DNA of 40,466 nucleotides from Candidatus Moraniibacteriota bacterium. Its GTDB lineage: Bacteria; Patescibacteriota; Minisyncoccia; Moranbacterales; JBBINP01. Made by a program: the position numbers and the translations under genes. Where the stretch lies: the NCBI GenBank assembly GCA_037443825.1, contig JBBINP010000003.1, positions 1-40,466 on the forward strand. Direction: 5' to 3'. This document shows positions 11,995 to 39,467 of this stretch, one piece after another. The notes beneath the pieces were generated by a model that saw nothing but the letters and a program-made list of their open reading frames with translations, was not told where the DNA came from and made no database searches. The stretch's first letter is position 1; each line of letters opens with the position of its first letter.

Positions 11995-12088
11995 ATTTTT
12001 AGCTGCTTAAATAGTTAATTGATTGCGGGCATTATTAACATTGCCCGAAAAGCGAATTTATTTTCAAATTCCGCTTTTTCTAACTTAA

Positions 12089-12111
12089 CAAAAAGTCCGC
12101 TCGCGCGGACC
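12089..12111 (-). promoter_or_regulatory. Candidate leader attenuator upstream of nusA
   Basis: Minus strand ggtccgc-GCGA-gcggact-tttt, ~10 nt after the predicted TSS. Confidence 0.55.
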
Positions 12112-12127
12112 GTTTCAGTATGAGTTT

Positions 12128-12189
12128 AAATTATCAGATCAATTCGCTTTTGTCAATCATTTGACAAAGTCGCGGAAATATGCTAGTAT
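12128..12189. promoter_or_regulatory. Back-to-back promoters: TTGACA-17-TAATTT (minus, nusA) and TTGACA-17-TAGTAT (plus, orphan operon), both with extended TG
   Basis: tgtcaa 12151-12156, ttgaca 12161-12166, TAGTAT 12184-12189. Confidence 0.7.
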
Positions 12190-12278
12190 TTAGTGTTGTC
12201 GTGAAATGGCTTCCATTTTGCGACAGTCAAGGAAAGAAACTGAAAGAACCTTGAAAATTTAATATTAGGAGGCAGAAA

Positions 12279-13022
12279 ATGCCACTAAAAACTATTTTAA
12301 TGGGCTCTTTGTTGGGCCCGCTATTTGAAAAGGTAATAGGCAAGATCTCCGATAAGGGGATCGACATCGCGGAAAAAAAGTTGAGCAAAATGCTCGACTT
12401 AAAAGAGGCTGGTCGTAGTACTGATGATGAGAGGTACTACAATTCAGCTAAAAGATCCCTTAGCGATCTCGGAAATAAAAGTTTCACTCGAGATCAAATC
12501 AAAGAGATTGTAGACTTTGAGTTTAACCTTCGCCGAAACAACAAGGAAGAGGCGGAGGCGTTTGTGCTTTTTATTTCCGGGATCGTCCATGATCTGGAAA
12601 GAGAGGTGCAGACGGTAGAAACCATTACAAGCAAGGATGGACACAACTCTTATGTCAAAAAAAAGACATACAAAGAAATAGACAGGACGGGGGGAGAAAA
12701 AGATCTCTACTTCTTCCTGAGGGAGTTGTTGGACATAAAGGGAAGCACGGACGAAGAGACGTTTAAGCTTCGGCGCGACTTCCTGAAAGGGTCAAATGTT
12801 TTTTCCATAATCCCTCCCAAAAAGGAGGGTAAAAGCGAGATTGAAAAAGGGATGGACGGGTTTTACGACGCCATCCAGAAAAAAGTGAAAGAGTTCGGCC
12901 GGGAAATAAATACCGGCGCTAAAAAAATAAAAAAGACGCAAGGTGAAAACCTTTGCGATTTAAATGAAAAATTTAAAAAAATAAAAAGCTGGAATGAAAC
13001 CCAGCGAAGGAGGAGGAAATGA
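12279..13022 (+). CDS. Hypothetical protein (247 aa, charged, helical)
   Basis: Long ORF with AGGAGG SD and its own promoter; no recognised motif. Confidence 0.8.
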   Translation: MPLKTILMGSLLGPLFEKVIGKISDKGIDIAEKKLSKMLDLKEAGRSTDDERYYNSAKRSLSDLGNKSFTRDQIKEIVDFEFNLRRNNKEEAEAFVLFISGIVHDLEREVQTVETITSKDGHNSYVKKKTYKEIDRTGGEKDLYFFLRELLDIKGSTDEETFKLRRDFLKGSNVFSIIPPKKEGKSEIEKGMDGFYDAIQKKVKEFGREINTGAKKIKKTQGENLCDLNEKFKKIKSWNETQRRRRK

Positions 13023-20430: not shown

Positions 20431-21355
20431 GGTTTACTGAATAATTAGACGATGACTGCCTCGCGTCTATTTCTCTTAACGCCTTGATTCTTTCCTCTAT
20501 CGGCGGATGCGTTTGAAACAAGGAGGAAATTTTTTTGCCCTTGAAAGGATTGGCTATGTATAAATGCGCCGTGGCGCGGTTGGCGGCTTCCAACGGCTCA
20601 TTGTCGGCGGAGATTTTTTGAAGCGCGCTCGCCAAACCTTCCGGATAACGAGTAAGCAAGGCGCCGTCTGCATCCGCCAAAAATTCGCGTTTGCGGGAAA
20701 TCGCCATCTGCATCAGCATGGCCGCGAGCGGCGCCAAAATAGACAAAATTACGGCCAGAACAAGCAGGATTAATTGTAATTGTCCGCCGCCTTCCCGTTT
20801 GCGGCCAAATCCCGCCCACGTCCAATGGCGAAACCAATCGGCCAAAAGAGTCACAAATCCGACCAGCACCACTATCACGGTGGAAAGCAAGATATCGCGA
20901 TTGCCGATGTGCGAGAGTTCGTGAGCAATAACTCCTTCCAGCTCCGTTTTTTCCAATTTTTGGACAAGACCCGTGGTTAAACAGATGACTCCGTGTTCAG
21001 GATTTCTGCCGGTGGCAAAAGCGTTGAGAGCGGAATCTTCAATAATATATATTTGGGGAACCGGCAAGCCGGCCGTAATGCAGAGATTTTCCACCAGATT
21101 ATAAATTTGCCGATTATTTTTTTTGTCCGCTTTTTTGGCTCCGCTCATGGCCAAAACTATTTTGTCGCTCCACCAATACGATCCGAAGCTCATGACAAAT
21201 GAAAATATCACCGCGCCGTAAAGTATGGTGCTGTTGTTCATCGCTCCAGCAAAAATATATCCGATGCCGATGACAAATGCCAAAAAACCGGTGATATAAA
21301 CCCATGTCAGGCGGATATTTTTGTCTTTTTGCGTGTATAAAGTCGGCATATTCAA
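20420..21355 (-). CDS. htpX: M48 family zinc metalloprotease HtpX
   Basis: NAFATGR, AHELSH (HExxH), SRKREFLAD, THPPIEERI. Confidence 0.95.
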   Translation of the reverse strand: MNMPTLYTQKDKNIRLTWVYITGFLAFVIGIGYIFAGAMNNSTILYGAVIFSFVMSFGSYWWSDKIVLAMSGAKKADKKNNRQIYNLVENLCITAGLPVPQIYIIEDSALNAFATGRNPEHGVICLTTGLVQKLEKTELEGVIAHELSHIGNRDILLSTVIVVLVGFVTLLADWFRHWTWAGFGRKREGGGQLQLILLVLAVILSILAPLAAMLMQMAISRKREFLADADGALLTRYPEGLASALQKISADNEPLEAANRATAHLYIANPFKGKKISSLFQTHPPIEERIKALREIDARQSSSNYSVNREF

Positions 21356-23136
21356 TTAAACAATTGGAGGTTGCCTTTTATTATACTGTTTTTTACAGAA
21401 ATATCAATTTTTGAACTGCCGGCGATTTTTTCCAAAAAATTTTTTCTTTTTTCTTCTTGCATAATCGCCAATTGCCCGTTTCTTTCAAGATATAAAGGGA
21501 TTAAATAGAAAGACAGTTTATTGTCCGCATAGATAATTCCCAGCGCCAAACGGATTTTGACTTCTTCTGAAAAATTTTGATCAAAAACAAAATTGCCGAG
21601 GGAATAAAATACGGCTTTATTTTTATAAATCTCCACCGGCTGAACGACATGAGGATGGGAACCGATTATCAAGTCCGCTCCGGCATCAATAAATTGGCGC
21701 GCCAAAAAAATTTGTTTTTCATCCGGCAAAAAAGCGTATTCCGTTCCCCAGTGCGCCATTAAAACAACCAAATCATTTTCGCTTTTGGCTTTTTTGATGC
21801 TTTTCGCGACGCTTTCTTCGCCGGCGCCTCCAAATCGGTTATAAGCGATAAAAGCGATTTTTTTGTTGTTTATTTCTTTCACGAGATAAGCGTCTTTTTT
21901 CAGCGGACTGCCGAAATAATCCACGCTTGCTTCGCGCAAATAATTTTCCGTTTCTTGAGCGCCAATTTCTCCAAAATCATCCGTATGATTGTTGGCCAAA
22001 CTCAGGATGTTGATATGATTGCTTTTTAAGAAACTTGCGGTTGTTTCCGGATCGGAAGTGAAGGAAAAATGTTCTTTTTCTTTTGCGCGTGAATTTATTG
22101 AAACGGAAGGGTTGCTTGTAACCGCGCTTTCCAGATTGGCAACATTGAAATCCTGCCCCCAAAACAAGCGGTGGATTTTTTTCGTCGGCCAATCAACGCC
22201 TTTGTTTTTCAAAAGCGGGCGCATTCCCCGATCCAGCATCAGATCGCCAAAAAACATAAAACTGGCCGCGCCAAAACTTAATTCGCCTTTTCCTTGCGAA
22301 AAATAACCGGTGAGATAGCTGGTGTTTTCCGAACCAAAATCCCGGCCGTAAATTTCCGAAGAGCTTGATTTTTCCAGAAAATTAAACTTTCGGCGGCCAA
22401 GTTTTTCGGAATACCGCAATAAAATTTCCAATCCGCCGCGGCAATCAATGTCAATCCGGCTGATTTTTTTATAATTAAAATTATTAATGGAATCCAAAGA
22501 TATTTGATCGTGCATTTCGGAAGCTGTTTGCCCGATATAATGCGAAAAATCGGCAGAAAGAATCACAACAGTTCCGGAATCGGAATTATCAGCCAATAAA
22601 TTCGCGATTTTTTCCGCTTTGGATGAAGAAAGTCCGTCGCGCAGCATAATCGGGGTTATTTCGGCTTGCGGAAAATATTTTTTCGCGAAAGGCAACAAGT
22701 TTTTTATGCCGTGCTCTTGTTCAAACGCTTCATTATCCAATGAAAAAATGTCCGCTTCTTCCGCGAGAGTTCTGATCATTTTTTTGTCAGCATCAATTTT
22801 TCCGCCCTCAATTTCCCAATCATTGTCGGCCAAAACCGCCCACCCTCGCCCGATATTGTTGTGATTGGGACTTATGAGAACAATTTTTTTAATTTCGTGA
22901 TTTTTGTTGATTTGCGCCGTCTTTTGAAAAATATTTTCAATAAGTTTGCGCGCGACAAGATGATGCGGAGAAATAAAAGAAACAGCTTCCGGTAAAGCTG
23001 TTTTTGGCGATGTCTCAAAAATTTTATTTTCAGGAATGCTTTTTTCAATCCGATTATCGCGCGCGAAAATTCCTCCCATCATTGCAAAAAACAAGCCTGC
23101 GGCAAAAATCGCTACAATTTTCTTTTGTCTTTGCAT
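21352..23136 (-). CDS. Fusion of signal/anchor + Memo-like (AmmeMemoRadiSam protein B) domain + CapA/PgsA metallophosphoesterase-like domain
   Basis: Memo: SPHH, SPNH, EHGI..LLPF, SADFSHY; CapA: GDLMLDR, NLE, LANNH, HWGTEY, GSHPHVVQ, YSLGNFVFDQ. Confidence 0.85.
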   Translation of the reverse strand: MQRQKKIVAIFAAGLFFAMMGGIFARDNRIEKSIPENKIFETSPKTALPEAVSFISPHHLVARKLIENIFQKTAQINKNHEIKKIVLISPNHNNIGRGWAVLADNDWEIEGGKIDADKKMIRTLAEEADIFSLDNEAFEQEHGIKNLLPFAKKYFPQAEITPIMLRDGLSSSKAEKIANLLADNSDSGTVVILSADFSHYIGQTASEMHDQISLDSINNFNYKKISRIDIDCRGGLEILLRYSEKLGRRKFNFLEKSSSSEIYGRDFGSENTSYLTGYFSQGKGELSFGAASFMFFGDLMLDRGMRPLLKNKGVDWPTKKIHRLFWGQDFNVANLESAVTSNPSVSINSRAKEKEHFSFTSDPETTASFLKSNHINILSLANNHTDDFGEIGAQETENYLREASVDYFGSPLKKDAYLVKEINNKKIAFIAYNRFGGAGEESVAKSIKKAKSENDLVVLMAHWGTEYAFLPDEKQIFLARQFIDAGADLIIGSHPHVVQPVEIYKNKAVFYSLGNFVFDQNFSEEVKIRLALGIIYADNKLSFYLIPLYLERNGQLAIMQEEKRKNFLEKIAGSSKIDISVKNSIIKGNLQLFN

Positions 23137-25826: not shown

Positions 25827-26273
25827 ATGGAAATAATTTCTCAATACGCCATTTTTGCCATTCCGATTATCGTCGGAACTGTTACCCAGACAATAAAGTT
25901 TGTTGTTTTTTCCATGAAGCACGGCTGGAGTTTGCAATATTCCATGACGCACGGCCACATGCCGAGCGCCCACACCGCTTTTATTGTTTCTTTGGTAACA
26001 GCCGTGGCTATTTTTGACGAAAACGGAATACGTTCCAGCGCTTTTGCCATTGCCGCCATTCTAGCCGTTATCGTTATTGACGACGCCGTGCGGCTTCGGA
26101 TGTATATGGGCGATCAGGGGCGTTATCTCAATATGCTTGTTCGCCAGCTGAACGTGGATGAAAAAAATTTTCCGCGCCTCAAGGAAAGAATCGGCCATCG
26201 TGTCAGCGAAGTTATTATCGGGGGAATATTGGGATTTGCCCTGACAATTTTTTTGGCAAAAATATTATCCTAA
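25827..26273 (+). CDS. Divergent PAP2 family (DUF212) membrane protein
   Basis: GHMPSAH, DA..LR...G.Q, LKERIGH...EV..G motifs. Confidence 0.9.
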   Translation: MEIISQYAIFAIPIIVGTVTQTIKFVVFSMKHGWSLQYSMTHGHMPSAHTAFIVSLVTAVAIFDENGIRSSAFAIAAILAVIVIDDAVRLRMYMGDQGRYLNMLVRQLNVDEKNFPRLKERIGHRVSEVIIGGILGFALTIFLAKILS

Positions 26274-27566
26274 TTCTTCCAGTATCACTTTTTTGTCGTT
26301 CCATGGAATTCTTTTGCCGCCGATCGCCATCGTGACTTCGGCGCCTTTTCCGGTTACCACCACAAAGTCTCCGGTCTTTGCAATCCGCAGAGCTTTTTTG
26401 ATCGCCCCTCGCCTGTCCAAAATTTTCCAAAAATTAACGTCCAGCTGTTTGTTTTTAACCCCGGCCGCCACTTCATTGATGATTTTCTCCGGATCTTCGC
26501 GATACGGATCTTCATTGGTCAAAACAATATAATCGGCGTAACGCGAAACGATTTCTCCCATAATCGGCCTTTTTCCGCGATCCCGCTCCCCGCAAGCGCC
26601 AAAAACGACGATGACTCTGGGCGTCAAACGACCTGGTTGTTTCCGCGCCAGTTTCAAGCTGGAAATCAGTTCGTATAATTTTTCAAGAGAATCCGGCGTT
26701 ACCGCGTAATCAACAATAATTTTTAAATTCCTGCCGTTCGGAACATATTCCAAGCGGCCGGGAACGCCTTTGATTTTTGAAAGCGCGCTGGCAATCGTTT
26801 GCATTCCGATGTTTTGGGAAAGTCCGGCGCTTATAGCCGCCAGCGCGTTTTCAATATTGAATTCTCCCGGCAGATTCAAAAGAAATTTTGAATTTTGAAT
26901 TTTGAATTTTGAATGATTGATTCCCATTTCTATTTCACCGGCCGCGACCATTCGCGCTTCATTTTTCACCAAAGAAAAAGAGCGGGAAACTGGAATCCTC
27001 GCCGCGTAACCGTATTTTTCTTTGGCTTCGTATTTTAAAAAATCCCGCGGATTCTCCATGTTTAAGTTAACAATCAACGTTCCGTTATTTTTTGAAGTCA
27101 TCTGAAAAAGCTTCATTTTTGCTTTTCTGTATTTGTCCATCGTTTCGTGATAGTCAAGATGTTCTCTCGTCAAATTGGTAATTACTGCCGCATCATATTT
27201 CACCCCCCAGACCCGGTTCTGATCCAGGGAATGGGATGATGTTTCCAGCACGAGATAATCGCATTTTTTCTCAACCGCCCTTTTGATGAATTTCTGAGTG
27301 GCGAAAGAAGATAATGTGGTAAATTTGGTGTTATTAACCCACTCCTCGGAATCCAGCTTGAAATTTATGGTGGAAATCATCGCCGTTTTATATCCGGCTT
27401 CTTCCAGAATTTTGGCAATCATCTGGCAGGTGGTTGTTTTTCCATTGGTTCCCGTCACGCCGATAACTTTTATTTTTCGAGAGGGAAATCTATGCCAAAC
27501 ATTGGCCAAAATAGCCTGAAGCAAATGGTACGCATTCTTTATTTTTTGAGGTATTAGTTTTTTCAT
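26265..27566 (-). CDS. murE: UDP-N-acetylmuramyl-tripeptide synthetase MurE
   Basis: GVTGTNGKTT, ETSSH, TNLTREHLDYH, GVPGRLE, FGACGERD..KR..MG; EDPY in place of DNPR. Confidence 0.92.
   Translation of the reverse strand: MKKLIPQKIKNAYHLLQAILANVWHRFPSRKIKVIGVTGTNGKTTTCQMIAKILEEAGYKTAMISTINFKLDSEEWVNNTKFTTLSSFATQKFIKRAVEKKCDYLVLETSSHSLDQNRVWGVKYDAAVITNLTREHLDYHETMDKYRKAKMKLFQMTSKNNGTLIVNLNMENPRDFLKYEAKEKYGYAARIPVSRSFSLVKNEARMVAAGEIEMGINHSKFKIQNSKFLLNLPGEFNIENALAAISAGLSQNIGMQTIASALSKIKGVPGRLEYVPNGRNLKIIVDYAVTPDSLEKLYELISSLKLARKQPGRLTPRVIVVFGACGERDRGKRPIMGEIVSRYADYIVLTNEDPYREDPEKIINEVAAGVKNKQLDVNFWKILDRRGAIKKALRIAKTGDFVVVTGKGAEVTMAIGGKRIPWNDKKVILEELG
26884..26914. repeat. Heptamer tandem repeat (AATTTTG)x4 inside murE
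   Basis: Read directly; encodes SKFKIQNSKF. Confidence 0.9.
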
Positions 27567-28523: not shown

Positions 28524-29522
28524 TCAAAATAAACTTTTAACCTTTTGCAGCAGGCGATAAATATTATACAGGAAGGGATTCAAAATAATATCATAACTCC
28601 CCGGAAATTCAATCGGATTCGTGTTCGGAGCAAAGCCGGTTTTAAACCTGGTTATTCCGGACCAATCGCCATTGTTTTTTGTCCACTGCGTATCGTATGA
28701 TTTCACCCCGCCCAAATCATATCTTGCAAATCCCGCTTTTTTGGCGTCCGTTATCGCCTGCCATTGCAGAAGATACGGCGCCATCGCGTTGCGAAATTCA
28801 TTATCCGACGCTCCATGAAGATACGTGGCCGTATCGCCGCAAAAAACGACAATGTTGGCCGCGGCGACTTTTCCGTTATATTCAGCAATATATAATTTTA
28901 AAATATCTCCCGGAATTATTTCAAACATTTTGCGATAATAACTCTCCGGATGGCAAGTGATCTTGTCTCGTTTTGCCGTAACTTTCACCAATCTCATAAA
29001 TTCATTAATATAAAAATTTGAATTTTGATCATCGGAATCTGAAGATTTATTGAAAATTGCTTTCACGGAAACCCCGCGTTTCCGCGAGAGATTGATATTA
29101 TATCTTGTCTTCGGCTTCATCTCCGCCAGCAAATCTTCTTCATTTTTGGAAATATCCAAAACCAATATCTCTTTCGGTTGCATATCATGCGGCGCCCTGA
29201 CGGCTTTCAGTTTCAGTAACTTCGCGCAGACATCCATGAATTCTTTTCTATCCGGATCAATCCTGATCCAGCCCGCGTTGTTTTCTTTTGCCAATTCAAT
29301 TATCCCGGGAAAATAATTTTGAATTTGCCTGATTGTCGCGTTTTGATCATTGATTATTGACACAACCGGTCCGCGGGGAATGTAAAAATAACTCCCGACC
29401 GCCGGAAGATTGTGTTTCACACCGCTCGCGCGAAATTTTTCTCCCGCAATCAGAAAAGTTTCGCGTCCGGCGGCTTTTTGAAATTCCCGCCACTCGTCAG
29501 ACTGAAGAAAATCAATTTGCAT
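28524..29522 (-). CDS. FemABX family peptidoglycan bridge peptidyltransferase (FemX-like)
   Basis: FLQS.EW, YIPRGP, MKPKTRYNI, YLHGAS, PYLLQW, YDLGG, GITRFKTGF. Confidence 0.9.
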   Translation of the reverse strand: MQIDFLQSDEWREFQKAAGRETFLIAGEKFRASGVKHNLPAVGSYFYIPRGPVVSIINDQNATIRQIQNYFPGIIELAKENNAGWIRIDPDRKEFMDVCAKLLKLKAVRAPHDMQPKEILVLDISKNEEDLLAEMKPKTRYNINLSRKRGVSVKAIFNKSSDSDDQNSNFYINEFMRLVKVTAKRDKITCHPESYYRKMFEIIPGDILKLYIAEYNGKVAAANIVVFCGDTATYLHGASDNEFRNAMAPYLLQWQAITDAKKAGFARYDLGGVKSYDTQWTKNNGDWSGITRFKTGFAPNTNPIEFPGSYDIILNPFLYNIYRLLQKVKSLF

Positions 29523-30127: not shown

Positions 30128-32665
30128 TTACAAAGTTACGTTTTCGCTCGCGCTGGTTTGGTTGTTGTTTTTGTCTGTGAGAACCGCTTTAACGCTAACG
30201 GTTTTGCCTATATCTTCCGCCGCAAACGAATAGGACGTTTCCGTTCCAGAGCCACTGTAAATTTTGTCATCCTTCACAAAAAAATCAATTTCTCTTATTC
30301 CATAAGGCGCGTTGATATTGGCTTTGATAACAAGCTTCATCGCCGCCAAATCCTTGGAAACACTCATCGAAACGGCAGGGAAATATTTGGAAAAATCGTC
30401 TTTCTTACATTCCTCTTCCGGCGGAGAGCCGAGAATGTAATCTTCTTTATTTCTTTCATACCATTTCTGGACAGCTTTTTCCCAATTTTTAAATTGCGGA
30501 TCATTTTCCGGTTTTTGCGGCCGATCTCCGCGCGGATCGTCTTTTTTCACATACCACAAAATGGAATGCGCTTCGGCAAAATCCCTTTTCTTCACGTCGC
30601 TCGGACCGCAATAATCATTAGCCAGGCAGTATTCGCTTTCTTTTCCTGGTATCCTGCAAACTTTGACATTTTCTCTAACATTAATCTTGCCGTCCAAAAT
30701 ATCCTTGCCGGCCTCCTCTTTTTCATATTTGGGAAATTGTTCCAAGTTGTGGTTGCCCAGCGCCTGATCAAGAAAATTTCTCCAGATGGGAGCGGCCACA
30801 TTCACTCCGTCCGCGCCCGCGCGCATCGGACTGTTGTCGTTGTTGCCGGCCCAGACTCCGACTGCCAAAGACGGAGTGTAGCCAATCGCCCAACCGTCGC
30901 GAAATTCATTGGTGGTTCCTGTTTTTACCGCCACATGGCGATGGCTGAAACTCAACGGACTTGTTTCCCCAAAAACCGGCTTCCGATAATCATTGGTGGA
31001 AAGAATATGGCTTATCATGGATGTATATTTTTCTTCAACGATTCTCTGCCCTTCTTCCGTTTTATATTCTTCCAAAACCTCTCCTTTGCTGTTTTCTATT
31101 TTCAGAATGGCTGTTTTTCCATGGCGAACTCCGCCGTTCGCCAAAACGCCGAAAGCGTTCACGTGGTCAAGCAGTTTCACCTCTCCGCCGCCCAACACCA
31201 AAGATAAACCGTAACGATCCGGATAATTAAGTCCGGAAATGCCCAAATTTTTCGCCATTAAAACGGAATTTTTCACTCCGACAAGATACAAAGCTTCCAC
31301 TGCCGGAATATTAAGCGATTGTGCAAGCGCCTCTTTCATTTTAACGGGACCTCTGAATTTTCCGTCATAATTCTGGGGAATATAATCTTTTTGTCCTTCC
31401 GCCGCAAAATTAATTTGCGCGTCAAAAAGATAGGTTTCCGGCGTATATCCGTTTTTAAAAGCAGTTAAATACACGTATGGCTTAAAAGAAGATCCGGGCT
31501 GACGATCGCGAATCGCCACGTTAACCTGCCCTTCAAATTTGCAATTCCTGCCGGTAACGCATTTTTCCGGCTGCGATTCTCCAAAAAAATCCCTGGATCC
31601 GACCATGGCTAAAATTTGTCCAGTCTTCGGATCCATGGACACCAAAGACGCGTTGTGAGCGTTCCAGTTTTTCATATTTTTTTCCACTCCTTCCCTGACC
31701 GCCCTTTCAGCTATCTGCTGTTTATCCCAATCCAGCGTGGTATAAACCCTCAATCCTTCTTGTTCCACGGTTTGTTTTCCGTATTTTTTTTCCAGATATT
31801 CCCTAACGTACATCACGAAGTGGGGGGCGTCCATTTTTTCCCGATTGGGCTTTATTCTTGCCAGCACGTCTGTTTTTTTAGCTTCTTCCGCCTGTTGTTC
31901 GGTAATATATCCCAGCCGCGCCATTTGGCTAATTGCGTATTCCTGGCGTATTTTTAGCCGTTCTATGTTTGAACCATGCGGAGAATACAGAGTTGGCGCC
32001 TTGGGCAAAGACGCCAAAAGAGCCGCTTCATCCAGCGCCAATTCCTTGGCATGTTTTCCAAAAAACGTCTGGGCCGCCGCCTCAATGCCGTAAGCGTTGG
32101 AGCCATACGGAATTTCATTGAGATACATCCCTAAAATTTCGTCTTTGGAAAATTTCAACTCCATTTCAACGGCCAGAATAACTTCTTTGATTTTGCGCGT
32201 AAAAGTCCGCTCCGGGGTCAGAAGGGAATTTTTGACCAGCTGCTGAGTTATGGTGGAGCCGCCCTGAGCCACGCTGCGTTTCAGAATGTCCTTGAAAGCG
32301 GCGCGGGCGATGGAACTCATTTTGATGCCATGATGCGAATAAAAATCCTGATCTTCCAGCGCGATGGTCGCGTAGCGAATGCTTTCCGGCATTTCCTCAA
32401 AAGGAATGCGCGTCCGTTTTTCCTCCCCGTGGATCTCATAAAGGACGTGTTTGCCGTCGCGATCGTAAATTTTTGCCGATTCAATTATCAAACGCGAAAT
32501 GACTTTTTCGGAGCTGGGCAAATCTTTGGCGAAATAGAGAAAAACGCCGATGACAAACAAAAAAAAGGCGCCAGCCAAAACAGCCGCTGTTTTGGCGGCG
32601 ATTTTCCAATATTCTTTTTGAGGAAGAACCTTGAATTTTTTGAGTGAAATAAAAATTGATTTCAT
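30128..32665 (-). CDS. Class A penicillin-binding protein (PBP1A family)
   Basis: EDQDFYSHHG, QGGSTITQQL, RKIKE; transpeptidase SSFK, SLN, KTG. Confidence 0.95.
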   Translation of the reverse strand: MKSIFISLKKFKVLPQKEYWKIAAKTAAVLAGAFFLFVIGVFLYFAKDLPSSEKVISRLIIESAKIYDRDGKHVLYEIHGEEKRTRIPFEEMPESIRYATIALEDQDFYSHHGIKMSSIARAAFKDILKRSVAQGGSTITQQLVKNSLLTPERTFTRKIKEVILAVEMELKFSKDEILGMYLNEIPYGSNAYGIEAAAQTFFGKHAKELALDEAALLASLPKAPTLYSPHGSNIERLKIRQEYAISQMARLGYITEQQAEEAKKTDVLARIKPNREKMDAPHFVMYVREYLEKKYGKQTVEQEGLRVYTTLDWDKQQIAERAVREGVEKNMKNWNAHNASLVSMDPKTGQILAMVGSRDFFGESQPEKCVTGRNCKFEGQVNVAIRDRQPGSSFKPYVYLTAFKNGYTPETYLFDAQINFAAEGQKDYIPQNYDGKFRGPVKMKEALAQSLNIPAVEALYLVGVKNSVLMAKNLGISGLNYPDRYGLSLVLGGGEVKLLDHVNAFGVLANGGVRHGKTAILKIENSKGEVLEEYKTEEGQRIVEEKYTSMISHILSTNDYRKPVFGETSPLSFSHRHVAVKTGTTNEFRDGWAIGYTPSLAVGVWAGNNDNSPMRAGADGVNVAAPIWRNFLDQALGNHNLEQFPKYEKEEAGKDILDGKINVRENVKVCRIPGKESEYCLANDYCGPSDVKKRDFAEAHSILWYVKKDDPRGDRPQKPENDPQFKNWEKAVQKWYERNKEDYILGSPPEEECKKDDFSKYFPAVSMSVSKDLAAMKLVIKANINAPYGIREIDFFVKDDKIYSGSGTETSYSFAAEDIGKTVSVKAVLTDKNNNQTSASENVTL

Positions 32666-32710: not shown

Positions 32711-34492
32711 TTAATGTTGACTTAAATGTCTTTTTAATGGCGCAAAATCATTATTGGCCATAATAAACAAAACATTGCGATGCTCGGCATCGGGAAAATT
32801 TCTGCTAATTGACGTTGGCAACCCGCTGAAGCGACTGATTAAAAAATTTCCATTATCAGCTAGTGATTTTTCAGCTTCTCCTAAAATTATTTTTTCAAGT
32901 TTTGATTTGTGCGCGCAAATCCTGCAACAAACTAAAAACTCAAACTTTATGTCAAGGTGTAAATCAAAATATTTTTCAATAATTAAATCCTCAATTCTGT
33001 TCAACATTTTTTTATATATCTTAACTCTCTTAATGGGAAAAGCATAAAATTTAGAAGCGCCAATGATGGCATGGGTCAACATGTATAATCCAAGCGTTTC
33101 ATTGCCAGGCAGTTTCCACGCATATTCTTCAAATATTTTTAAGAAATATTGCGGATTGGCATATCTGCTCTTCCCGAAATAATGGTCTAGATTGTAAAAA
33201 TAATTTACAGCAAATGTAGACATTATAATTATTGCCTTTTTGTCCTTATATAATTTATTGCCCAATTTTACAAATTCTTTATCTGAAATTTCCTTTTTTA
33301 TGCTATCACGCAAGTTATTGCCATAGAGCGTACCCGCGAAAAGATGCCGAAAAAGGACCGCGTTAAACGGAGCTAGCCATGGATACTTTAGCATATATTC
33401 TTTTCTTGTTTTCCATGCAATCAGATTGTTTTGATTATAATTATATTTTAATTTTAGCAAATCTTTTATTTTTTCTTGGACTTCATTTTGATTTTTTCCC
33501 AGATATTGATTTTTTAGCTTATCCAATTCTTCACGATAAAATTTTTCCCTGGTCCATAAATACATTCTGGAAACATAGTGAAACTTCTGATTTCCAAGAT
33601 TAGCGATATTTTTGTCAAAATATTGACGTATGAGATCGGTTTTGTTTTTTAATTTCCGATTATGCAAATCCAAACAATAATCAATGATTTTCTCCGCTAC
33701 ATTAATTCCTGTTGCCTGCTGGAATCCTTTCCATTCCGGATTGGTGTTAACCTCCATAAAATATAACTTGCCGTTTTTTAAGTCTTGGATTATATCAATT
33801 CCACAAAGCGAAAGTTTAAACATTGAAGCAACCGACAAAGCAATTTTTTCAAATTCTGTTAACAATTTTTCATTAGAAACAACTTCCGCGGATCCGCCTT
33901 TAGAAATATTATTTAAATAACTGCCTTTGCGCGCCACTCTTTTTATAACTCCAAGCATTCTTCCGCCTAACACAAAAACGCGATAATCCCCGTTATTTTC
34001 AATAAAATTTTGATAAATATATTTTTGAGTATCATAACTGTGTTTTTTTAGGTCTTTTTCTGATTTCAACAAGGTAATGTCGTCGCCCTGCGAACCATAA
34101 TTGGGTTTTTGAATAATTGGATACTTTAGTTTTTGAGGAATGGCGGACAGTAACTCTTTCTGGTTTTTAAAAACAAATGTTGGAATGGAATTCAAACTAC
34201 TATAACTTTCTAAATATTTTTGTTGGAAATATTTTCTTGTCAAAAACGGCAATTCTAAGCAGTCATTGTTCAAAACAACTCGCGTTCTCATTAAGTGAAA
34301 GCAAAGATTTTTCCTGTCTAATGTTTCGAGTTTTGACGAAAACCAGATAATCACATCGCCAAAACGACTATCAAAATTTTCGTTAATGTCTTGCAATAAT
34401 ATTTTTTCTAATTGAATTTTATTTTTTTTAGCTGCCTTAATCAACTCATTCGCATGCCAACCTCCTTTTGTGCAAATCAATGAAATTTTCAT
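32711..34492 (-). CDS. RimK-type ATP-grasp ligase fused to a DUF3541-like helical C-terminal domain
   Basis: PIIQKPNYGSQG, QNFI, DYRVFV, NISKGG, GIDII, EVNTNP; C-terminal HYVSRMYLW, YMLTHAII..S.FY, EHRNVLFIM. Confidence 0.8.
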   Translation of the reverse strand: MKISLICTKGGWHANELIKAAKKNKIQLEKILLQDINENFDSRFGDVIIWFSSKLETLDRKNLCFHLMRTRVVLNNDCLELPFLTRKYFQQKYLESYSSLNSIPTFVFKNQKELLSAIPQKLKYPIIQKPNYGSQGDDITLLKSEKDLKKHSYDTQKYIYQNFIENNGDYRVFVLGGRMLGVIKRVARKGSYLNNISKGGSAEVVSNEKLLTEFEKIALSVASMFKLSLCGIDIIQDLKNGKLYFMEVNTNPEWKGFQQATGINVAEKIIDYCLDLHNRKLKNKTDLIRQYFDKNIANLGNQKFHYVSRMYLWTREKFYREELDKLKNQYLGKNQNEVQEKIKDLLKLKYNYNQNNLIAWKTRKEYMLKYPWLAPFNAVLFRHLFAGTLYGNNLRDSIKKEISDKEFVKLGNKLYKDKKAIIIMSTFAVNYFYNLDHYFGKSRYANPQYFLKIFEEYAWKLPGNETLGLYMLTHAIIGASKFYAFPIKRVKIYKKMLNRIEDLIIEKYFDLHLDIKFEFLVCCRICAHKSKLEKIILGEAEKSLADNGNFLISRFSGLPTSISRNFPDAEHRNVLFIMANNDFAPLKRHLSQH

Positions 34493-34499
34493 AGTTTTC

Positions 34500-35453
34500 T
34501 CATTTAATTCTGTTTATAAAAACTTTTAGCAAAACCGCGTACATTTTAAGCATAAATGGCTTTTCTTCCGGCGTAAAATATAATCCGGGCATTGAGTTTA
34601 GCTCCACAACCCAAGGAAATCCGTTTTCATCAAACATAAAATCAATGGTATAAATCCTGGGGTTGAACGGTTGTAAAATTTTATTAGCGTGTTGAATTAT
34701 CAGACGAAGCGATTTGGGGATTTTGCTGTTTGGAACTATTATAAGCGATCCGCCTTGAGCCAAATTGGCCAAGAAACTTCCTTTCTTCGGTTCGCGTATA
34801 TAAGCATAAACAACTTTTTCATTCACAAAAACCAAACGCAGATCATGATAACTCTTATTCAGTCCGGGCGCGCCCTTGGATGAGTCAATGAATTCTTGCA
34901 ACAAAAACGGCTGGTTAATTTTTGATTTTTTTAACGCTTCTTTTTTGTCACAGATCAAAATATTTTTACCACCGCTTTCAATCATCGGCTTAAGGACAAT
35001 TTTTCTTGTTTTCACTTTGGATAAATATTTTTTTAAATCTTCCTTGTTTTCAACAAGCCAATTTTGCTTGCTCCATTTTTCAAACAATAAACTAACATTC
35101 AACTTATCGTCAATTAAACGCGTAAATTCAAGATTATTAATAAACGGATACCGTTCTCTTATAAGCTCTTTTTTGTAATACACTTCCATTCGGGCTTTTG
35201 TTTTATCATAGATCAAATCCGGCTTGACATTGGAAGCGCGCTTCCACCGCCCGCCGCTGCCTTCAAAAATCCAGGCGTGCTTAAAAATGCATTTTTGATA
35301 GTCATACCATTGATACGAGGCGCGATACATTTGAATCCCGTTTCGCCGGCACAAATCATAAAAATATTCGTAGGAGTACTGATAATCTTTGTTTTGAAAA
35401 GGTTTAGCGGTCCGCCAATTGCTTTTGCCGAAAAGAATTAAAACTTTTTTCAT
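34500..35453 (-). CDS. ATP-grasp ligase (RimK / YheC-YheD-like)
   Basis: VLKP..ESGGKNI, LQEFI, DLRL, ANLAQGG, IDF, ELNSMPG. Confidence 0.85.
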   Translation of the reverse strand: MKKVLILFGKSNWRTAKPFQNKDYQYSYEYFYDLCRRNGIQMYRASYQWYDYQKCIFKHAWIFEGSGGRWKRASNVKPDLIYDKTKARMEVYYKKELIRERYPFINNLEFTRLIDDKLNVSLLFEKWSKQNWLVENKEDLKKYLSKVKTRKIVLKPMIESGGKNILICDKKEALKKSKINQPFLLQEFIDSSKGAPGLNKSYHDLRLVFVNEKVVYAYIREPKKGSFLANLAQGGSLIIVPNSKIPKSLRLIIQHANKILQPFNPRIYTIDFMFDENGFPWVVELNSMPGLYFTPEEKPFMLKMYAVLLKVFINRIK

Positions 35454-36900
35454 TGTTTTTATTTACATCAATTAAAAATTTTCCTAAATTCATTTTTCCG
35501 ATGATCATATCTTTTTTAAGATCCGCCCTGTCAACGATATTCACTTGCGTAGAAATAGATATGTTATTTGTGTTAAAATCTATATTTATCTTTGGCCTGA
35601 TTGATGTTCCATGCGCCGAATAAATTACCGCAATATCAGCTAAATCCGGATGTTGGCCCAAATATCTTTTACGCAATCCTTCTTCCACTTTTTTTACTTC
35701 TTCTCGTGAAAAGCCCGCGGGCAATTCCAATTTGTCAAAATAATTAAGCAAATCCTCAAAACCCAGATTAACAGCTAAATTCCTGTCAATAGAAGAAGAA
35801 TGTGCTCCAGTATCTATTTTGGCCTCCACTTCAATTTCTTTCCCGTTTTTGCCGACAAGTTTTACTTTTTCCGTCGCGCCGATGACTTTCCGTCCGGAAA
35901 TATCCTCAACCTCCTCTTCCACTTCCCCTCCAAAAAGATCCATCCCGATTCGCACGCCCTTTTCCGCTGTCAACGCCTTAAGTCCGCTGACTCTCATCAG
36001 ACGCTCTTTCAGTCCAGCCATATTGGCCAATTGAATGGAAAGGCCGGGTCTGGCGTTAAGCTCCAAAAAAACCGGTCCCAAGTCTTTGTCAATGGCGATA
36101 TCCGCTCCCAAAAATCCAAGCTTGGAAATTTCCTGAGCGCGCACCGCCAGTCTTAAAATATCCTGCCAGTAGGGAATTTTGATGCCGGAAAGCGGCATTC
36201 GCGTTTCCGGCACATATTCAATAAACTTCCGTTTGCCAAGAATAGCTGTGGTTGTAACGCCGCTCGCCATGTCAATTCCCAACCCGATCGCTCCCAGCTG
36301 CAAATTGGCTTTCCCCCCTGACTCCTTGGTAGGAAGGCGCAACATCGCCATTACCGGAACTTTATTATACACTATCACGCGAATATCGGGTATTCCGCGA
36401 AAAGCGTAGGGTTTGAACAATTTCAGCAATTTCAACCGTTCCTCAAAAAACGCCGTGTCGGAAGCTCCTGAAAGCAAAAAAGATCCGTCCAGAATATTGC
36501 GAATATGGTTTTTCAAGTCATCTTTCGTTACCAACGACCTGTCAGCTTTAATCCAAACATCCTCGCTGCCGTTTTCGTCCTCATTGCCGAATGAAGCGCC
36601 GCGAGCGACCTTTTTCTTCCCGTAAACAACAAGTATCCCTTCGCCGCCAAAGCCGCGACTGGGTTTTAACGCGAAACTTGACGGCAAAACACTCCAGTCA
36701 AAATTTTCCAGCTCTTCAAGCGTGGAAATTTTAGCCAGCAATTTCGGCACCGGCACGCCGCCCTTTTTCAGCAGTTTTTTACTCGCTATTTTGTCGTCCG
36801 CCAGATTTTTGGCCGACTTCCTGTTGCACGGCCGAATAAATTTCAAATTGCGGGCGTTCATCCCCAAAATAATATTTGCTTTTTGAAAAAAATCCAGCAT
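35404..36900 (-). CDS. Alpha-L-glutamate ligase-like (sugar-transfer-associated) ATP-grasp fused to a retropepsin-like aspartic peptidase domain
   Basis: ILGMNARN, ADDK, GIPDIRVI, AMLRLPTKESGGKANL..GA, LELNARPGLSIQLAN; C-terminal AKIDTGAHSSSID...MIIG. Confidence 0.88.
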   Translation of the reverse strand: MLDFFQKANIILGMNARNLKFIRPCNRKSAKNLADDKIASKKLLKKGGVPVPKLLAKISTLEELENFDWSVLPSSFALKPSRGFGGEGILVVYGKKKVARGASFGNEDENGSEDVWIKADRSLVTKDDLKNHIRNILDGSFLLSGASDTAFFEERLKLLKLFKPYAFRGIPDIRVIVYNKVPVMAMLRLPTKESGGKANLQLGAIGLGIDMASGVTTTAILGKRKFIEYVPETRMPLSGIKIPYWQDILRLAVRAQEISKLGFLGADIAIDKDLGPVFLELNARPGLSIQLANMAGLKERLMRVSGLKALTAEKGVRIGMDLFGGEVEEEVEDISGRKVIGATEKVKLVGKNGKEIEVEAKIDTGAHSSSIDRNLAVNLGFEDLLNYFDKLELPAGFSREEVKKVEEGLRKRYLGQHPDLADIAVIYSAHGTSIRPKINIDFNTNNISISTQVNIVDRADLKKDMIIGKMNLGKFLIDVNKNNEKSFNSFRQKQLADR

Positions 36901-36903
36901 AAA

Positions 36904-37557
36904 TCATCTTGTCTTAAAAATTTCCCTGAAGCGCAAATATTCCGAGAGGCGCAATCCAGTCCATTTTCCTAGAAAAATATTTATTAGCAATGTCAGCAAA
37001 ATTACCCACGGATAGGCAATAATAAAATTGGACAGCGCTTCCCATTTGAGCAGCCAATAGCCAAGCAGAGAAATAAAAAGCGTTTCAATGGCCAGAAAAA
37101 AAGCCGTTCGGTTGTCTTTTTCAATTTGCGCCGCGATGAATTTTTCCACGATAGTGATCATTATTAAAAGAGGAAAAATTGAAACCGCCGCCAGTCCCGT
37201 GCGTTGAAAATACCCCCCGATCGTCAACACCAAAAGCGTCGTAAGGGCGACAACGGAAATGGTGATAGCCACCCGCGGCAAATAAAGCAAACGCATTTTT
37301 TTCAACAAAAACTTAACTGCCATGCCGGCAAGAATAACGCTTATAAAAATTGCTATGCCGTATTTAATGCCGATCGCGAAAAAGGCGAACATAATGATGG
37401 CCGGAGTATAAATTCCAAAGGCCTTAATGCCGACCACCTGCCGCAAAAAAGCGATGAATGTCGCCACTACCGGCAGCATCAGCAAGAGTTTAATTGTTTC
37501 CATGGGAACGCCTTCCGCCAGAAAAAAATTCACGATGGGACTGGTTGGTGCGATCAT
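36904..37557 (-). CDS. 7TM membrane protein (7TM_transglut-like, without the inactive transglutaminase domain)
   Basis: LLMLP, RQVVGIKAFGIYTP, LYLPR, FPLLIM...VE, LGKWTGLRLSEYLRF; start 37557 or 37614. Confidence 0.85.
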   Translation of the reverse strand: MIAPTSPIVNFFLAEGVPMETIKLLLMLPVVATFIAFLRQVVGIKAFGIYTPAIIMFAFFAIGIKYGIAIFISVILAGMAVKFLLKKMRLLYLPRVAITISVVALTTLLVLTIGGYFQRTGLAAVSIFPLLIMITIVEKFIAAQIEKDNRTAFFLAIETLFISLLGYWLLKWEALSNFIIAYPWVILLTLLINIFLGKWTGLRLSEYLRFREIFKTR

Positions 37558-37641
37558 ATGATTTTTAATTTTCCAGCCAAAGCGAAACTTCGCCAAAGCG
37601 ATGGATTTTGACAATAAATTTAAAAATTAAAATCCGCGACA

Positions 37642-38127
37642 TTATTCTAAATCGTTGATTTTTTTGGAATTGAGATGGCAAATGGCAATAGCCAAAGCGT
37701 CTGCCGCGTCATCCGGCCTGGGAATTGATTTAAGTTTCAGAACGTTTTTCACCATTTGCTGAATTTGTTTTTTTTCCGCCCGTCCGTATCCGGTAAGCGC
37801 CTGTTTGATCTGAAGAGGCGTATAACTGGTTATTTTAATTTTTTGTTGCTGCAAAGTCAAGAGGATGGCGCCGCGCGCCTCGCTGACTTTTATCGCCGTT
37901 TTCAAATTTTTAAAAAAGAAAATATCCTCCACAGCCGCTTCTCGGACTTTATATTTTTGGACAATTTTTTTGACATCCCTGCCGATTTCTTCCAGTCGTT
38001 CAGCGGCTTCTTTTCGGACAGAAGTGCTGATGTGGCCAAAAGCCAACGGCTTCGCGCCGCCATTTTTTTCTTCCACCACCGCCCAACCGGTTGTCGCCGT
38101 GCCAGGATCAACGCCCAATATTATCAT
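37642..38127 (-). CDS. ruvC: Holliday junction resolvase RuvC
   Basis: ILGVDPG, AVEDIFF, YTPLQIK..LTGYGRAEK, DDAADALAIAICH. Confidence 0.97.
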   Translation of the reverse strand: MIILGVDPGTATTGWAVVEEKNGGAKPLAFGHISTSVRKEAAERLEEIGRDVKKIVQKYKVREAAVEDIFFFKNLKTAIKVSEARGAILLTLQQQKIKITSYTPLQIKQALTGYGRAEKKQIQQMVKNVLKLKSIPRPDDAADALAIAICHLNSKKINDLE

Positions 38128-38879: not shown

Positions 38880-39467
38880 TCAGGAAAGCCCTTCCCGTAT
38901 TTTTTCCTCAATAATTTCTCCCAGTTCATTGGCTTCATTAATTTCGTTCTTTTTCCGCATGGTCATGATTAAATCCTTAATCGCGTAAGGATCGGGAACG
39001 TTATGAAAAATAAAGCGTTCTTTTTCGGCTGCCGTTTGCACATAGACATCGCCGTAGTTAAGAAAAGTCTGAATGATGCCTTTGACCTCCGTGGTAACGT
39101 CCTGAATTCTTTCCAATTCTAGTTCGCTTACGCGCCGATCAAACAATCCTTTCTGAATAATATTGACTACCCGCTTGTCCGTGACAATCCAGATGTCAAA
39201 ATAATAATCAATCCACACAAAAAAAGCGTACATCCAAATAAAAACAGCGAAAAAGCTTTGCACAAAAAGAAAGGCGGCATAAATTTCGCGCTCCTTGAGA
39301 TCCGGAAATATCTCGGGAAAAACAAAAAAGCCGACAAAAATAAGGAGGGTGAGAAAAAAAATCGTCGTTATTTGCAAAAAAATATCAAACCAATGGCGAT
39401 GATAAACGTCTATTATTTTTTCTTCGTCTTTTATTTCCTTAAAATGATACCTGCCGAAGTCGCGCAT
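38880..39467 (-). CDS. Membrane protein with bacterial PH (bPH_2) domain
   Basis: Two TM helices, then WIVTDKRVV...GLF, IQDV, NYGDVYVQTA. Confidence 0.85.
   Translation of the reverse strand: MRDFGRYHFKEIKDEEKIIDVYHRHWFDIFLQITTIFFLTLLIFVGFFVFPEIFPDLKEREIYAAFLFVQSFFAVFIWMYAFFVWIDYYFDIWIVTDKRVVNIIQKGLFDRRVSELELERIQDVTTEVKGIIQTFLNYGDVYVQTAAEKERFIFHNVPDPYAIKDLIMTMRKKNEINEANELGEIIEEKIREGLS

Follow-up and report, generated by a model that had tools for sequence, protein, structure and literature searches.

A variant of the Rlo system in Patescibacteria: a conserved membrane protein and ligase–peptidase pair beside a hypervariable ligase slot

We analyzed a 40,466-nt stretch of a Candidatus Moraniibacteriota genome (contig JBBINP010000003.1; the whole stretch is called the window here), in which four minus-strand open reading frames (ORFs), g1 to g4, fill positions 32711–37614. 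The locus is a variant of a type already known, the Rlo system, named in 2025. Its conserved unit is g1 and g2 only, a seven-transmembrane (7TM) protein and an ATP-grasp ligase fused to a retropepsin-like peptidase, and g3 and g4 sit in a hypervariable, low-GC slot that separates this core from a gene for a class A penicillin-binding protein (PBP). We favor, at a probability of roughly 0.55, a reading in which the locus represents the Rlo system as it occurs in Patescibacteria and performs membrane-coupled synthesis and trimming of acidic peptide chains, which strain-specific cassette genes would tailor. The host is an uncultured groundwater member of the Patescibacteria, Moranbacteria-like, with an 840-kb genome (completeness 94%, GC 0.41), and the nearest protein relatives carry the labels Candidatus Moranbacteria or Patescibacteria. 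As an earlier reading made from the DNA alone (the sequence-only reading) had described, the four genes are co-oriented and tightly packed, with gaps of 3 nt between g1 and g2 and 7 nt between g3 and g4 and a 50-nt overlap of g2 and g3, and they lie between ruvC and the class A PBP gene (pbp1a).

g1: 36904..37557 (or to 37614 from an upstream TTG), minus strand; RloB-like 7TM module only, probable ATG at 37557
g2: 35404..36900, minus strand; 498 aa, ligase and retropepsin domain
g2 N-terminal part, residues 1–320: 35941..36900, minus strand; RloC-like ATP-grasp ligase
g2 C-terminal part, residues 321–498: 35404..35940, minus strand; RloA/RimB-like retropepsin domain
DTGA catalytic motif, g2 residues 363–366: 35803..35814, minus strand; invariant in homologues
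g3: 34500..35453, minus strand; stand-alone RimK-type ATP-grasp ligase, cassette cluster 0
g4: 32711..34492, minus strand; 593 aa, RimK-family ligase and helical domain
g4 N-terminal part, residues 1–285: 33638..34492, minus strand; RimK-family ATP-grasp ligase
g4 C-terminal part, residues 286–593: 32711..33637, minus strand; DUF3541-like all-alpha (alpha/alpha)-toroid domain
ruvC, upstream flank: 37642..38127, minus strand; PF02075, E 1.7e-50
pbp1a, downstream flank of the variable slot: 30128..32665, minus strand; Transgly, E 3.3e-61, and Transpeptidase, E 7.8e-20

The conserved core

In Pseudomonas aeruginosa, an operon encodes a secreted retropepsin (rloA), a protein with an inactive transglutaminase and 7 TM helices (rloB) and a cytoplasmic ATP-grasp protein (rloC) (Lormand et al., mBio 2025, PMC12239564). 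The sequence-only reading had taken our locus for a rearranged relative of a trio of peptidase, 7TM and glutamate-ligase-like genes, and both the fusion in g2 and the transglutaminase-less 7TM protein bear this out; its description of the trio as uncharacterized is superseded by the 2025 account of RloABC. We searched a sample of 401 Patescibacteria genomes, in which related genomes are not independent, with PF14402 for the 7TM protein and TIGR02291 at E ≤ 1e-30 for the ligase, finding the former in 129 and the latter in 127. Both genes occur in 127 genomes, the 7TM gene alone in 2 (G181, with a sub-cut-off 7TM match, and G235, which is 83% complete), the ligase alone in 0 and neither in 272, so that the distribution is patchy over families, yet always joint. 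Neither PF14402 nor TIGR02291 matched any of 14 control genomes, E. coli among them. The order ruvC, 7TM, ligase–peptidase is repeated wherever the contig permits across 80 loci of Moranbacteria-type genomes; ruvC lies upstream of g1 in most of these loci and in many other Patescibacteria lineages. In a set of 20 loci from different families, the 7TM gene adjoins the ligase gene in all 19 untruncated loci (one contig ends earlier), and by tblastn 17 of these loci also have the peptidase domain.

The ligase open frame spans 410–530 aa in 99 of the 127 genomes, 620–920 aa in 25 and <400 aa in 3 (G278 and G400, both at contig ends, and G077, with 368 aa). Nearly all open frames being longer, practically no RloC-sized ligase standing alone was seen in the phylum. 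Some core proteins bear further domains. Among the 20 loci from different families, eight of the nine long 7TM forms (about 500–520 aa) carry an N-terminal PKD domain, and the ~170 residues between their PKD and 7TM parts gave no family match. Three core ligases end in a domain of the tubulin-tyrosine-carboxypeptidase family (MATCAP), and one is a triple fusion; the MATCAP-bearing ligase of L098 also holds a retropepsin-like stretch.

Long 7TM forms, examples among others: L096:6287-7810; L097:7267-8826; L099:7328-8896; L100:6013-7575
Ligase with C-terminal MATCAP domain, ~795 aa: L098:7811-10192; L105:7870-10269; L112:8043-10415
Triple fusion, 920 aa, of ATPgrasp_ST ligase, retropepsin and a second ATP-grasp (ATP-grasp_3, E 2.5e-21): L115:4408-7170

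The g1 protein, 217–236 residues long depending on its start, matches the 7TM_transglut family (PF14402; E 2e-30, 106.5 bits), and the 508-position NCBIfam RloB model matches it only at positions 312–507 (81.6 bits, cut-off 900). Pfam and NCBIfam searches found no transglutaminase domain in g1, in keeping with the sequence-only reading, and no transglutaminase match was obtained at E ≤ 1e-6 in any of the 20 7TM proteins from different families. Its AlphaFold2 (AF2) model has 7 TM helices, with a predicted local distance difference test (pLDDT) score of 89.7. Homologues conserve a basic C-terminal tail and, within the membrane, R39, E138, E158 and N193, the first three being charged residues inside helices. 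By the positive-inside rule, the tail is predicted to lie on the cytoplasmic side, which would place the N-terminus outside and agrees with the PKD domains of the long 7TM forms. Foldseek against the PDB returned no fold relative at E ≤ 1e-3 (best NqrD/RnfE, at 0.25), and a wide VIA-align search gave partial helix bundles only (best Z 9.5), with no transporter family or PgsC/CapC kinship demonstrable; no PgsC-like chain was listed in these fold searches, the presence of such a structure in the library being uncertain.

The ligase part of g2 matches ATPgrasp_ST (PF14397; E 2e-61, 207.9 bits, cut-off 31.4) and TIGR02291, 'alpha-L-glutamate ligase-like' (E 1e-78, 264.5 bits, curated cut-off 314.2), a cut-off that only 1 of the 127 matching Patescibacteria genomes reaches. 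Read from the sequences, the g2, g3 and g4 ligases all keep a K-P...G-x-G loop and an E-x-N motif, which we take to be motifs of ATP-grasp enzymes, and E280 and N282 of g2 are invariant in an alignment of Moranbacteria homologues. A search for solved relatives of the ligase part found none at E ≤ 1e-3.

The fusion of this ligase to a DTGA peptidase, another claim of the sequence-only reading, is upheld by the PF14397 match and a retropepsin profile match. Alone, the C-terminal domain of g2 scores 24.9 bits against Pfam Zn_protease (PF05618; cut-off 27), with a weak RloA match. A profile of 30 such domains matches 9g58 (4.4e-10), 9g59 (6.8e-9), Legionella 2pma (1.8e-7) and DDI1 retropepsin domains; 9G58 and 9G59 are crystal structures of RloA (PMC12239564). 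D363, T364, G365 and A366 are invariant across 21 Moranbacteria homologues, and D-T-G is invariant in the 30 domains, which come from diverse lineages. In the HMMER alignment to 9g58, K361, R435 and R458 of g2 pair with RloA K46, R114 and R137, which are conserved polyglutamate contacts (Lormand 2025, PMC12239564). The spacings from the catalytic Asp in the 9g58 chain are 66 and 89, matching RloA, and the three g2 residues are invariant or nearly so in the 21 homologues. Because the DTG motif and the polyglutamate-contact residues are kept, the g2 peptidase looks catalytically competent and specific for acidic chains.

This domain occupies residues 321–498 of the ligase polypeptide and so lacks an N-terminal signal peptide of its own. 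Because it is fused behind a cytoplasmic ligase, it should not be secretable as RloA is, and its topology resembles that of RimB, a cytoplasmic protein that trims polyglutamate tails and stimulates poly-alpha-glutamate synthesis by RimK (Little et al., JBC 2025, PMC11957791). g2 extends 17 codons beyond the usual end of its homologues (...DVNK), which produces the overlap with g3 (window 35404–35453); by tblastn, the stop at the usual end is read through in six related loci.

Complex prediction lends weak support to an association of g1 with g2. The pair scored an ipSAE of 0.59 (runs 0.60, 0.59 and 0.57; best control 0.00), with contacts agreeing by at least 77% between runs and a partner pLDDT of at least 75. 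Calibration of the tool puts 116 of 157 solved complexes and 2 of 215 mismatched pairs at or above the mark; scores of at most 0.60 account for only 18 of the passing solved complexes and for both passing mismatches.

The variable slot and its turnover

The class A PBP gene lies downstream and co-oriented in 63 of the 80 Moranbacteria loci and is inverted in 3. We surveyed the slot in the 63 loci that have both g2 and a co-oriented pbp1a; there the interval measures 1.0–6.1 kb and holds 1–7 ORFs, 180 in total. All of these ORFs were compared with Pfam (at E ≤ 1e-3 for 148 and at E ≤ 1e-8 for 32) and clustered at ≥35% identity over ≥70% of length. They fall into 38 gene clusters, arranged in 51 ways. 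ATP-grasp ligases of various subtypes make up the majority; the others include glycosyltransferases (GT4, GT2 and GT8), GNAT, YdjC-like, MATCAP and Mur-ligase-like genes, DUF3541 proteins, either alone or fused to RimK, and a few ORFs without a family. The cluster of g3 is the commonest, present in 41 of the 63 loci and in first position in 34, and that of g4 is rare (4 of 63); the g3-type and g4-type combination of the window is absent among these related loci. The sequence-only reading had treated the four genes as one system and had asked whether they co-occur elsewhere: g1 and g2 do, as a conserved pair in 127 of 401 genomes, but g3 and g4 together do not among the 63 related loci.

Both variable genes of the window encode ATP-grasp ligases, g4 with an added helical domain, as the sequence-only reading had proposed. 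g3 matches PF08443 (E 3e-15) and scores 52.9 bits against TIGR00768 (cut-off 143.4) and 25.4 against PRK10446 (cut-off 331); residues 1–275 of g4 match PF08443 at E 2.4e-29 and score 129.6 and 54.7 bits against the same two models. Both thus pass the Pfam RimK domain cut-off and miss the RimK family cut-offs. The nearest solved structures to the g4 ligase are Pseudomonas RimK 7qys (6.7e-13), LysX/ArgX and E. coli RimK 4iwx.

The g4 tail (~310 residues) has no Pfam match of its own. Its AF2 model is all-alpha (pLDDT 92.9), and the predicted structure shows an alpha/alpha-toroid fold class with no family assigned by fold: Foldseek found nothing at E ≤ 1e-3, and VIA-align returned a flat plateau of alpha/alpha-toroid proteins (GH105, LanC-like proteins, terpene cyclases and epimerases; Z 11.5–9) with no standout. 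We claim no specific enzyme family for the tail because, as the tool warns, this Z range may reflect a common helical arrangement. The DUF3541 likeness noted in the sequence-only reading emerges through relatives: in an alignment of the window domain and 50 relatives, 39 of the 51 sequences match DUF3541 (PF12060) at E ≤ 0.01 (best E 6.4e-27), and the window copy itself does not; a protein atlas feature search with the tail also placed DUF3541 first, at 0.95. Ten positions are invariant, including N145, Y185, H189, D229, E233, E285, H286 and N288 (domain numbering), which suggests a putative binding or catalytic site. In a collection of 5.8 billion proteins, 45 clusters match the tail (length range 326–1038 aa), nearly all with RimK-type domains and seven with a retropepsin. 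Four of these proteins, P0149, P0150, P0151 and P0156 (~760 aa), unite a retropepsin (PF05618), a RimK ligase and a g4-type DUF3541-like domain, resembling a RimBK hybrid plus a toroid.

The slot differs from its surroundings in composition. In every one of the 63 loci, its GC content is lower than that of either flank (mean 0.359 versus 0.447 and 0.437). In the window, GC is 0.436 for g1, 0.481 for the ligase part of g2, 0.371 for its peptidase part, 0.363 for g3, 0.319 for g4 and 0.455 for pbp1a, against 0.41 for the genome. The sequence-only reading had called the two distal genes AT-richer than the flanks, which is correct, and the drop starts already within g2; the peptidase-coding part is lower in GC than the ligase-coding part in 62 of the 63 loci.

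Comparison of close relatives points to rapid exchange. Among 12 locus pairs with ligase domains ≥90% identical, the arrangement is the same in just 1, and 3 have no cluster in common. In these closest pairs the ligase domain is 92–96% identical and the PBP 76–91%. The peptidase domain is only 52–61% identical in nine of them, where the cassettes are mostly different (at most one shared cluster; two in L008–L024), and 81–87% identical in the other three (L025–L081, L033–L059 and L054–L057), whose cassettes are the same or nearly so. A reverse mosaic also occurs in some pairs, with the peptidase closer than the ligase (80% versus 72% in L018–L051). From these alignments, the exchanged segment seems to begin inside g2, with recombination breakpoints at the ligase/peptidase junction. 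The peptidase domain would then travel with the slot, reflecting either functional matching to the cassette or mere linkage. Over all 1,953 pairs, peptidase identity and cassette overlap correlate at a Spearman coefficient of 0.116, a value reached by 6 of 1,000 label shuffles, and ligase-domain identity and cassette overlap at 0.073 (104 of 1,000), the shuffles in both cases ignoring relatedness.

Another explanation is that an Rlo-like pair simply sits beside a recombination hot spot that gathers ligase and transferase genes, for example for dipeptide-like metabolites, with no functional tie between the two. There is almost no correlation between what the cassettes hold and core identity (mean Jaccard 0.14–0.19 below 90% identity), the low GC is consistent with foreign or fast-turnover DNA, and some slot items are remote from peptide ligation, such as an AAA_14/DUF4143 ATPase in L013 and ~600-aa ORFs without a Pfam family. 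We nevertheless regard this explanation as distinctly unlikely. The slot holds at least one ORF in all 63 loci, mostly ATP-grasp ligases; most of the 19 distant lineages, too, have additional ATP-grasp or MATCAP genes after the core; a MATCAP domain or second ATP-grasp is fused to the core ligase itself in L098, L105, L112 and L115; and the core's own peptidase domain appears to belong to the exchanged segment.

The flanks and some of the slot genes raise a different alternative, in which the targets of the variable ligases are peptidoglycan stem peptides, cross-bridges or a wall polymer and the core acts in the same envelope pathway as the class A PBP. The ATP-grasp D-aspartate ligase and MurT of Gram-positives would be models for such enzymes. 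Besides the PBP gene directly downstream in the 63 Moranbacteria loci, L096, L103 and L104, which belong to other families, have one in the 15-kb stretch that holds the core; the window contains a FemAB/FemX-like gene (28524–29522) and murE (26265–27566); the slot holds Mur-ligase-like genes (L012, L019, L029, L048 and L080), GT4, GNAT and YdjC-like deacetylases; and Pseudomonas rlo mutants are misshapen and ampicillin-sensitive (PMC12239564). Gene order in small genomes may, however, be inherited, and most of the 20 other lineages have no adjacent pbp1a. g3 and g4 fall under the cut-off of every Ddl, Mur and MurT model, and the g2 peptidase keeps the RloA/RimB polyglutamate-contact residues with no obvious peptidoglycan role. 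On balance, cell-wall tailoring seems to us very doubtful.

Beyond these functional questions, two groups of slot genes deserve mention. The MATCAP gene is a single 444-aa ORF in L054 (11527–12858) and is split in its close relative L057 (11527–11913, 129 aa, and 11953–12858, 302 aa), where it is perhaps decaying. No Pfam family is assigned to a cluster of slot ORFs of ~460–630 aa, one member of which gives a weak SduA_N match (6.8e-4).

Family-less cassette ORFs: L009:11288-13126; L015:10857-12752; L035:11093-12910; L082:10889-12739; L008:8829-10220

Substrate and proposed function

RloA cleaves runs of at least eight Glu (PMC12239564). Within the 908 non-overlapping ORFs of the genome, we found no encoded Glu runs of ≥6 and no Asp/Glu runs of ≥9. 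If the g2 peptidase needs long runs as RloA and RimB do, a polyglutamate substrate would thus have to be made by a ligase. We infer, as the sequence-only reading did, a machine for synthesis and trimming. The RloC-like ligase of g2 would build alpha-linked acidic chains, probably glutamate-rich, in the cytoplasm, and its retropepsin domain, as a dimer, would cut or free them, as RimB does for RimK. g1 would anchor g2 at the membrane and pass or present the product at the cell surface. g3 and g4, drawn from a pool of fast-exchanging amide ligases and tailoring enzymes, could extend, branch or cap the chain in each strain, the alpha/alpha-toroid tail of g4 perhaps serving as a substrate-binding or hydrolytic module.

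The same enzymes could instead write and erase protein tails. One protein or a small number of proteins (ribosomal, envelope or the 7TM protein itself) would receive amino acids from the ligases, at the C-terminus or on side chains, and the retropepsin would remove these residues, in the manner of RimK/RimB on S6 or tubulin tyrosine ligase (TTL)/MATCAP on tubulin, with no free polymer. g3 and g4 are RimK-family ligases, TTL-family Pfam matches are common among the cassette ligases, and MATCAP-type carboxypeptidases occur in the slot of L013, L021, L054 and L076 (with the split copy in L057) as well as in the core ligase fusions of L098, L105 and L112. RimK and RimB are a proven writer/eraser pair (PMC11957791). 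The ribosomal precedent fits the genome poorly: its S6 homologue terminates in ...KKIEEILNI and thus has no final Glu. For E. coli RimK, the Glu-Glu terminus of S6 is required. Only 1 of the 908 ORFs has an acidic C-terminal tail (contig C1 42906–43565 of this genome, G000, in L116; ...EYDEDEEMDEVT; no Pfam family at E ≤ 1e-8), and it is conceivable that this protein is an acceptor for tail ligases. The obligate 7TM pairing and the extracellular PKD domain elsewhere also point to the envelope rather than the ribosome, and we judge tail writing unlikely.

Several points weigh against a membrane-coupled, cassette-tailored Rlo system. g2 scores under the curated cut-offs of both TIGR02291 and PF05618. 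According to PMC12239564, no Rlo system has a known product, acceptor or transport activity, and RloC was never assayed. The peptidase here is cytoplasmic by fusion and RloA is secreted, so that the Pseudomonas logic of export followed by trimming is not simply transferable. With a 7TM fold that lacks a solved relative, 'exporter' is a guess for g1, and the g1–g2 complex score falls in the weak zone of the calibration. The cassette enzymes are tied to the core product by position alone: over all pairs of loci, among which related genomes are not independent, the peptidase–cassette link is weak, and a relation between peptidase type and first cassette gene is unclear (a difference of 1.1 identity points, reached by 93 of 2,000 shuffles).

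Genetics in Pseudomonas gives the proposed function its interest. Loss of all RloA paralogues causes hypo-osmotic sensitivity and defects in shape, biofilm and antibiotic response, and deletion of rloB or rloC rescues the triple rloA mutant (PMC12239564). The Rlo system there has effects on tolerance of stress, sensitivity to antibiotics, biofilm and the shape of cells. Patescibacteria offer a naturally minimal version, with the ligase and its opposing peptidase in one protein and the membrane partner reduced to seven helices, which makes the questions of ligation, cutting and membrane crossing easier to attack in vitro. The slot, in turn, offers a natural variant set of 38 gene clusters, with MATCAP, Mur-type ligases and DUF3541 among them, that could reveal chain types and functions for unknown domains. 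That some 5 kb is kept in genomes of ~0.8 Mb argues for an important envelope or host-related role.

A bolder extension, which we offer as speculation that is probably wrong in part or whole, is that the slot and the g2 peptidase domain together form a cassette-exchange locus giving each strain its own ribosome-independent surface peptide or glycopeptide polymer. In these ultra-small, probably host-attached bacteria, it would do with amide ligases what O-antigen or teichoic-acid variation does elsewhere, under pressure from phage or host recognition, with the 7TM protein (bearing PKD elsewhere) as exporter or anchor.

Known relatives and neighboring genes

Like RloABC, an operon of P. aeruginosa and other Gammaproteobacteria, the locus encodes a 7TM_transglut domain, a TIGR02291-like ATP-grasp and a PF05618 retropepsin side by side, and the g2 peptidase profile matches RloA structures with the polyglutamate-contact residues kept. 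It differs in that the peptidase is fused to the ligase C-terminus without a signal peptide, whereas RloA is secreted; in that the 7TM protein lacks the inactive transglutaminase, which in other Patescibacteria is replaced by PKD (8 of 9 long forms); and in the hypervariable ligase cassette that follows the core. Patescibacteria are, to our knowledge, without an outer membrane or periplasm, a further difference from the hosts of RloABC.

With RimK, RimB and RimBK, the locus shares the pairing or fusion of an ATP-grasp alpha-L-glutamate ligase with a cytoplasmic, polyglutamate-cutting retropepsin-like endopeptidase; g3 and g4 belong to the RimK family, and some g4 relatives unite retropepsin, RimK and a DUF3541-like domain in one protein. 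In the RimBK hybrid, however, the protease is N-terminal to a true RimK (PMC11957791), whereas in g2 it is C-terminal on an RloC-type (ATPgrasp_ST) ligase. Unlike the RimK/RimB setting, S6 here has no Glu terminus and a 7TM partner is obligatory.

Three other systems offer partial parallels. In the TTL/MATCAP and TTLL/CCP cycles, ATP-grasp writers and peptidase erasers act on non-templated amino-acid tails; relatives have MATCAP-family peptidases in the slot, and other lineages have them as fusions with the core ligase, but the window itself has no MATCAP gene. O-antigen and capsule loci are low-GC hypervariable gene sets between conserved flanks, and the slot resembles them in its conserved flanks, in a GC content below both and in gene sets that differ between close relatives; it consists mainly of amide ligases, not sugar enzymes, and a surface location of its product is presumed. 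Cyanophycin synthetase combines ATP-grasp and Mur-ligase modules and, like PgsBCA, makes its polymer independently of the ribosome. Mur-ligase-like genes occur in the slot of five related loci, but the four genes of the window give only weak partial matches to cyanophycin synthetase models, far under cut-off, and no NCBIfam match to PgsB or PgsC was found among g1–g4.

A full-text search of the literature for RimK or ATP-grasp in Patescibacteria or the Candidate Phyla Radiation found no published description of this Patescibacteria system; the supplements of PMC12239564 and PMC11957791 might show members. We regard as new the C-terminal ligase–peptidase fusion, the loss of the transglutaminase or its replacement by PKD, the strict pairing in a third of the sampled Patescibacteria and the mosaic slot.

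No paralogues of g1–g4 were found elsewhere in the same genome. The sequencing runs listed as holding it are four DNA runs from a single subsurface-metagenome study, one of them perhaps the source, with no RNA run among them. Scans for promoter-like sites (28 versus 18.9±4.3 in shuffles) and terminator-like sites (17 versus 12.9±3.6) were uninformative for operon limits. Beyond the flanks, window profile searches identified ruvA, a FemAB-like gene, murE, yebC, a gene with a bacterial PH domain (bPH_2) and ruvB.

FemAB/FemX-like gene, just past ruvA: 28524-29522
murE: 26265-27566; Mur ligase, 404.6 bits as MurE
Fusion of a Memo-like (AmmeMemoRadiSam B) and a PGA_cap (CapA-like) domain, 594 aa: 21352-23136
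Membrane protein with bacterial PH domain (bPH_2), between ruvB and yebC: 38880-39467

A poly-gamma-glutamate system in the window was considered and rejected, the Mur ligase at 26265–27566 being MurE and the PGA_cap domain at 21352–23136 having no PgsB nearby. The FemAB/FemX-like gene, pbp1a and murE give the neighborhood a cell-wall flavor, and the position of the bPH_2 gene between ruvB and yebC is kept in most related loci.

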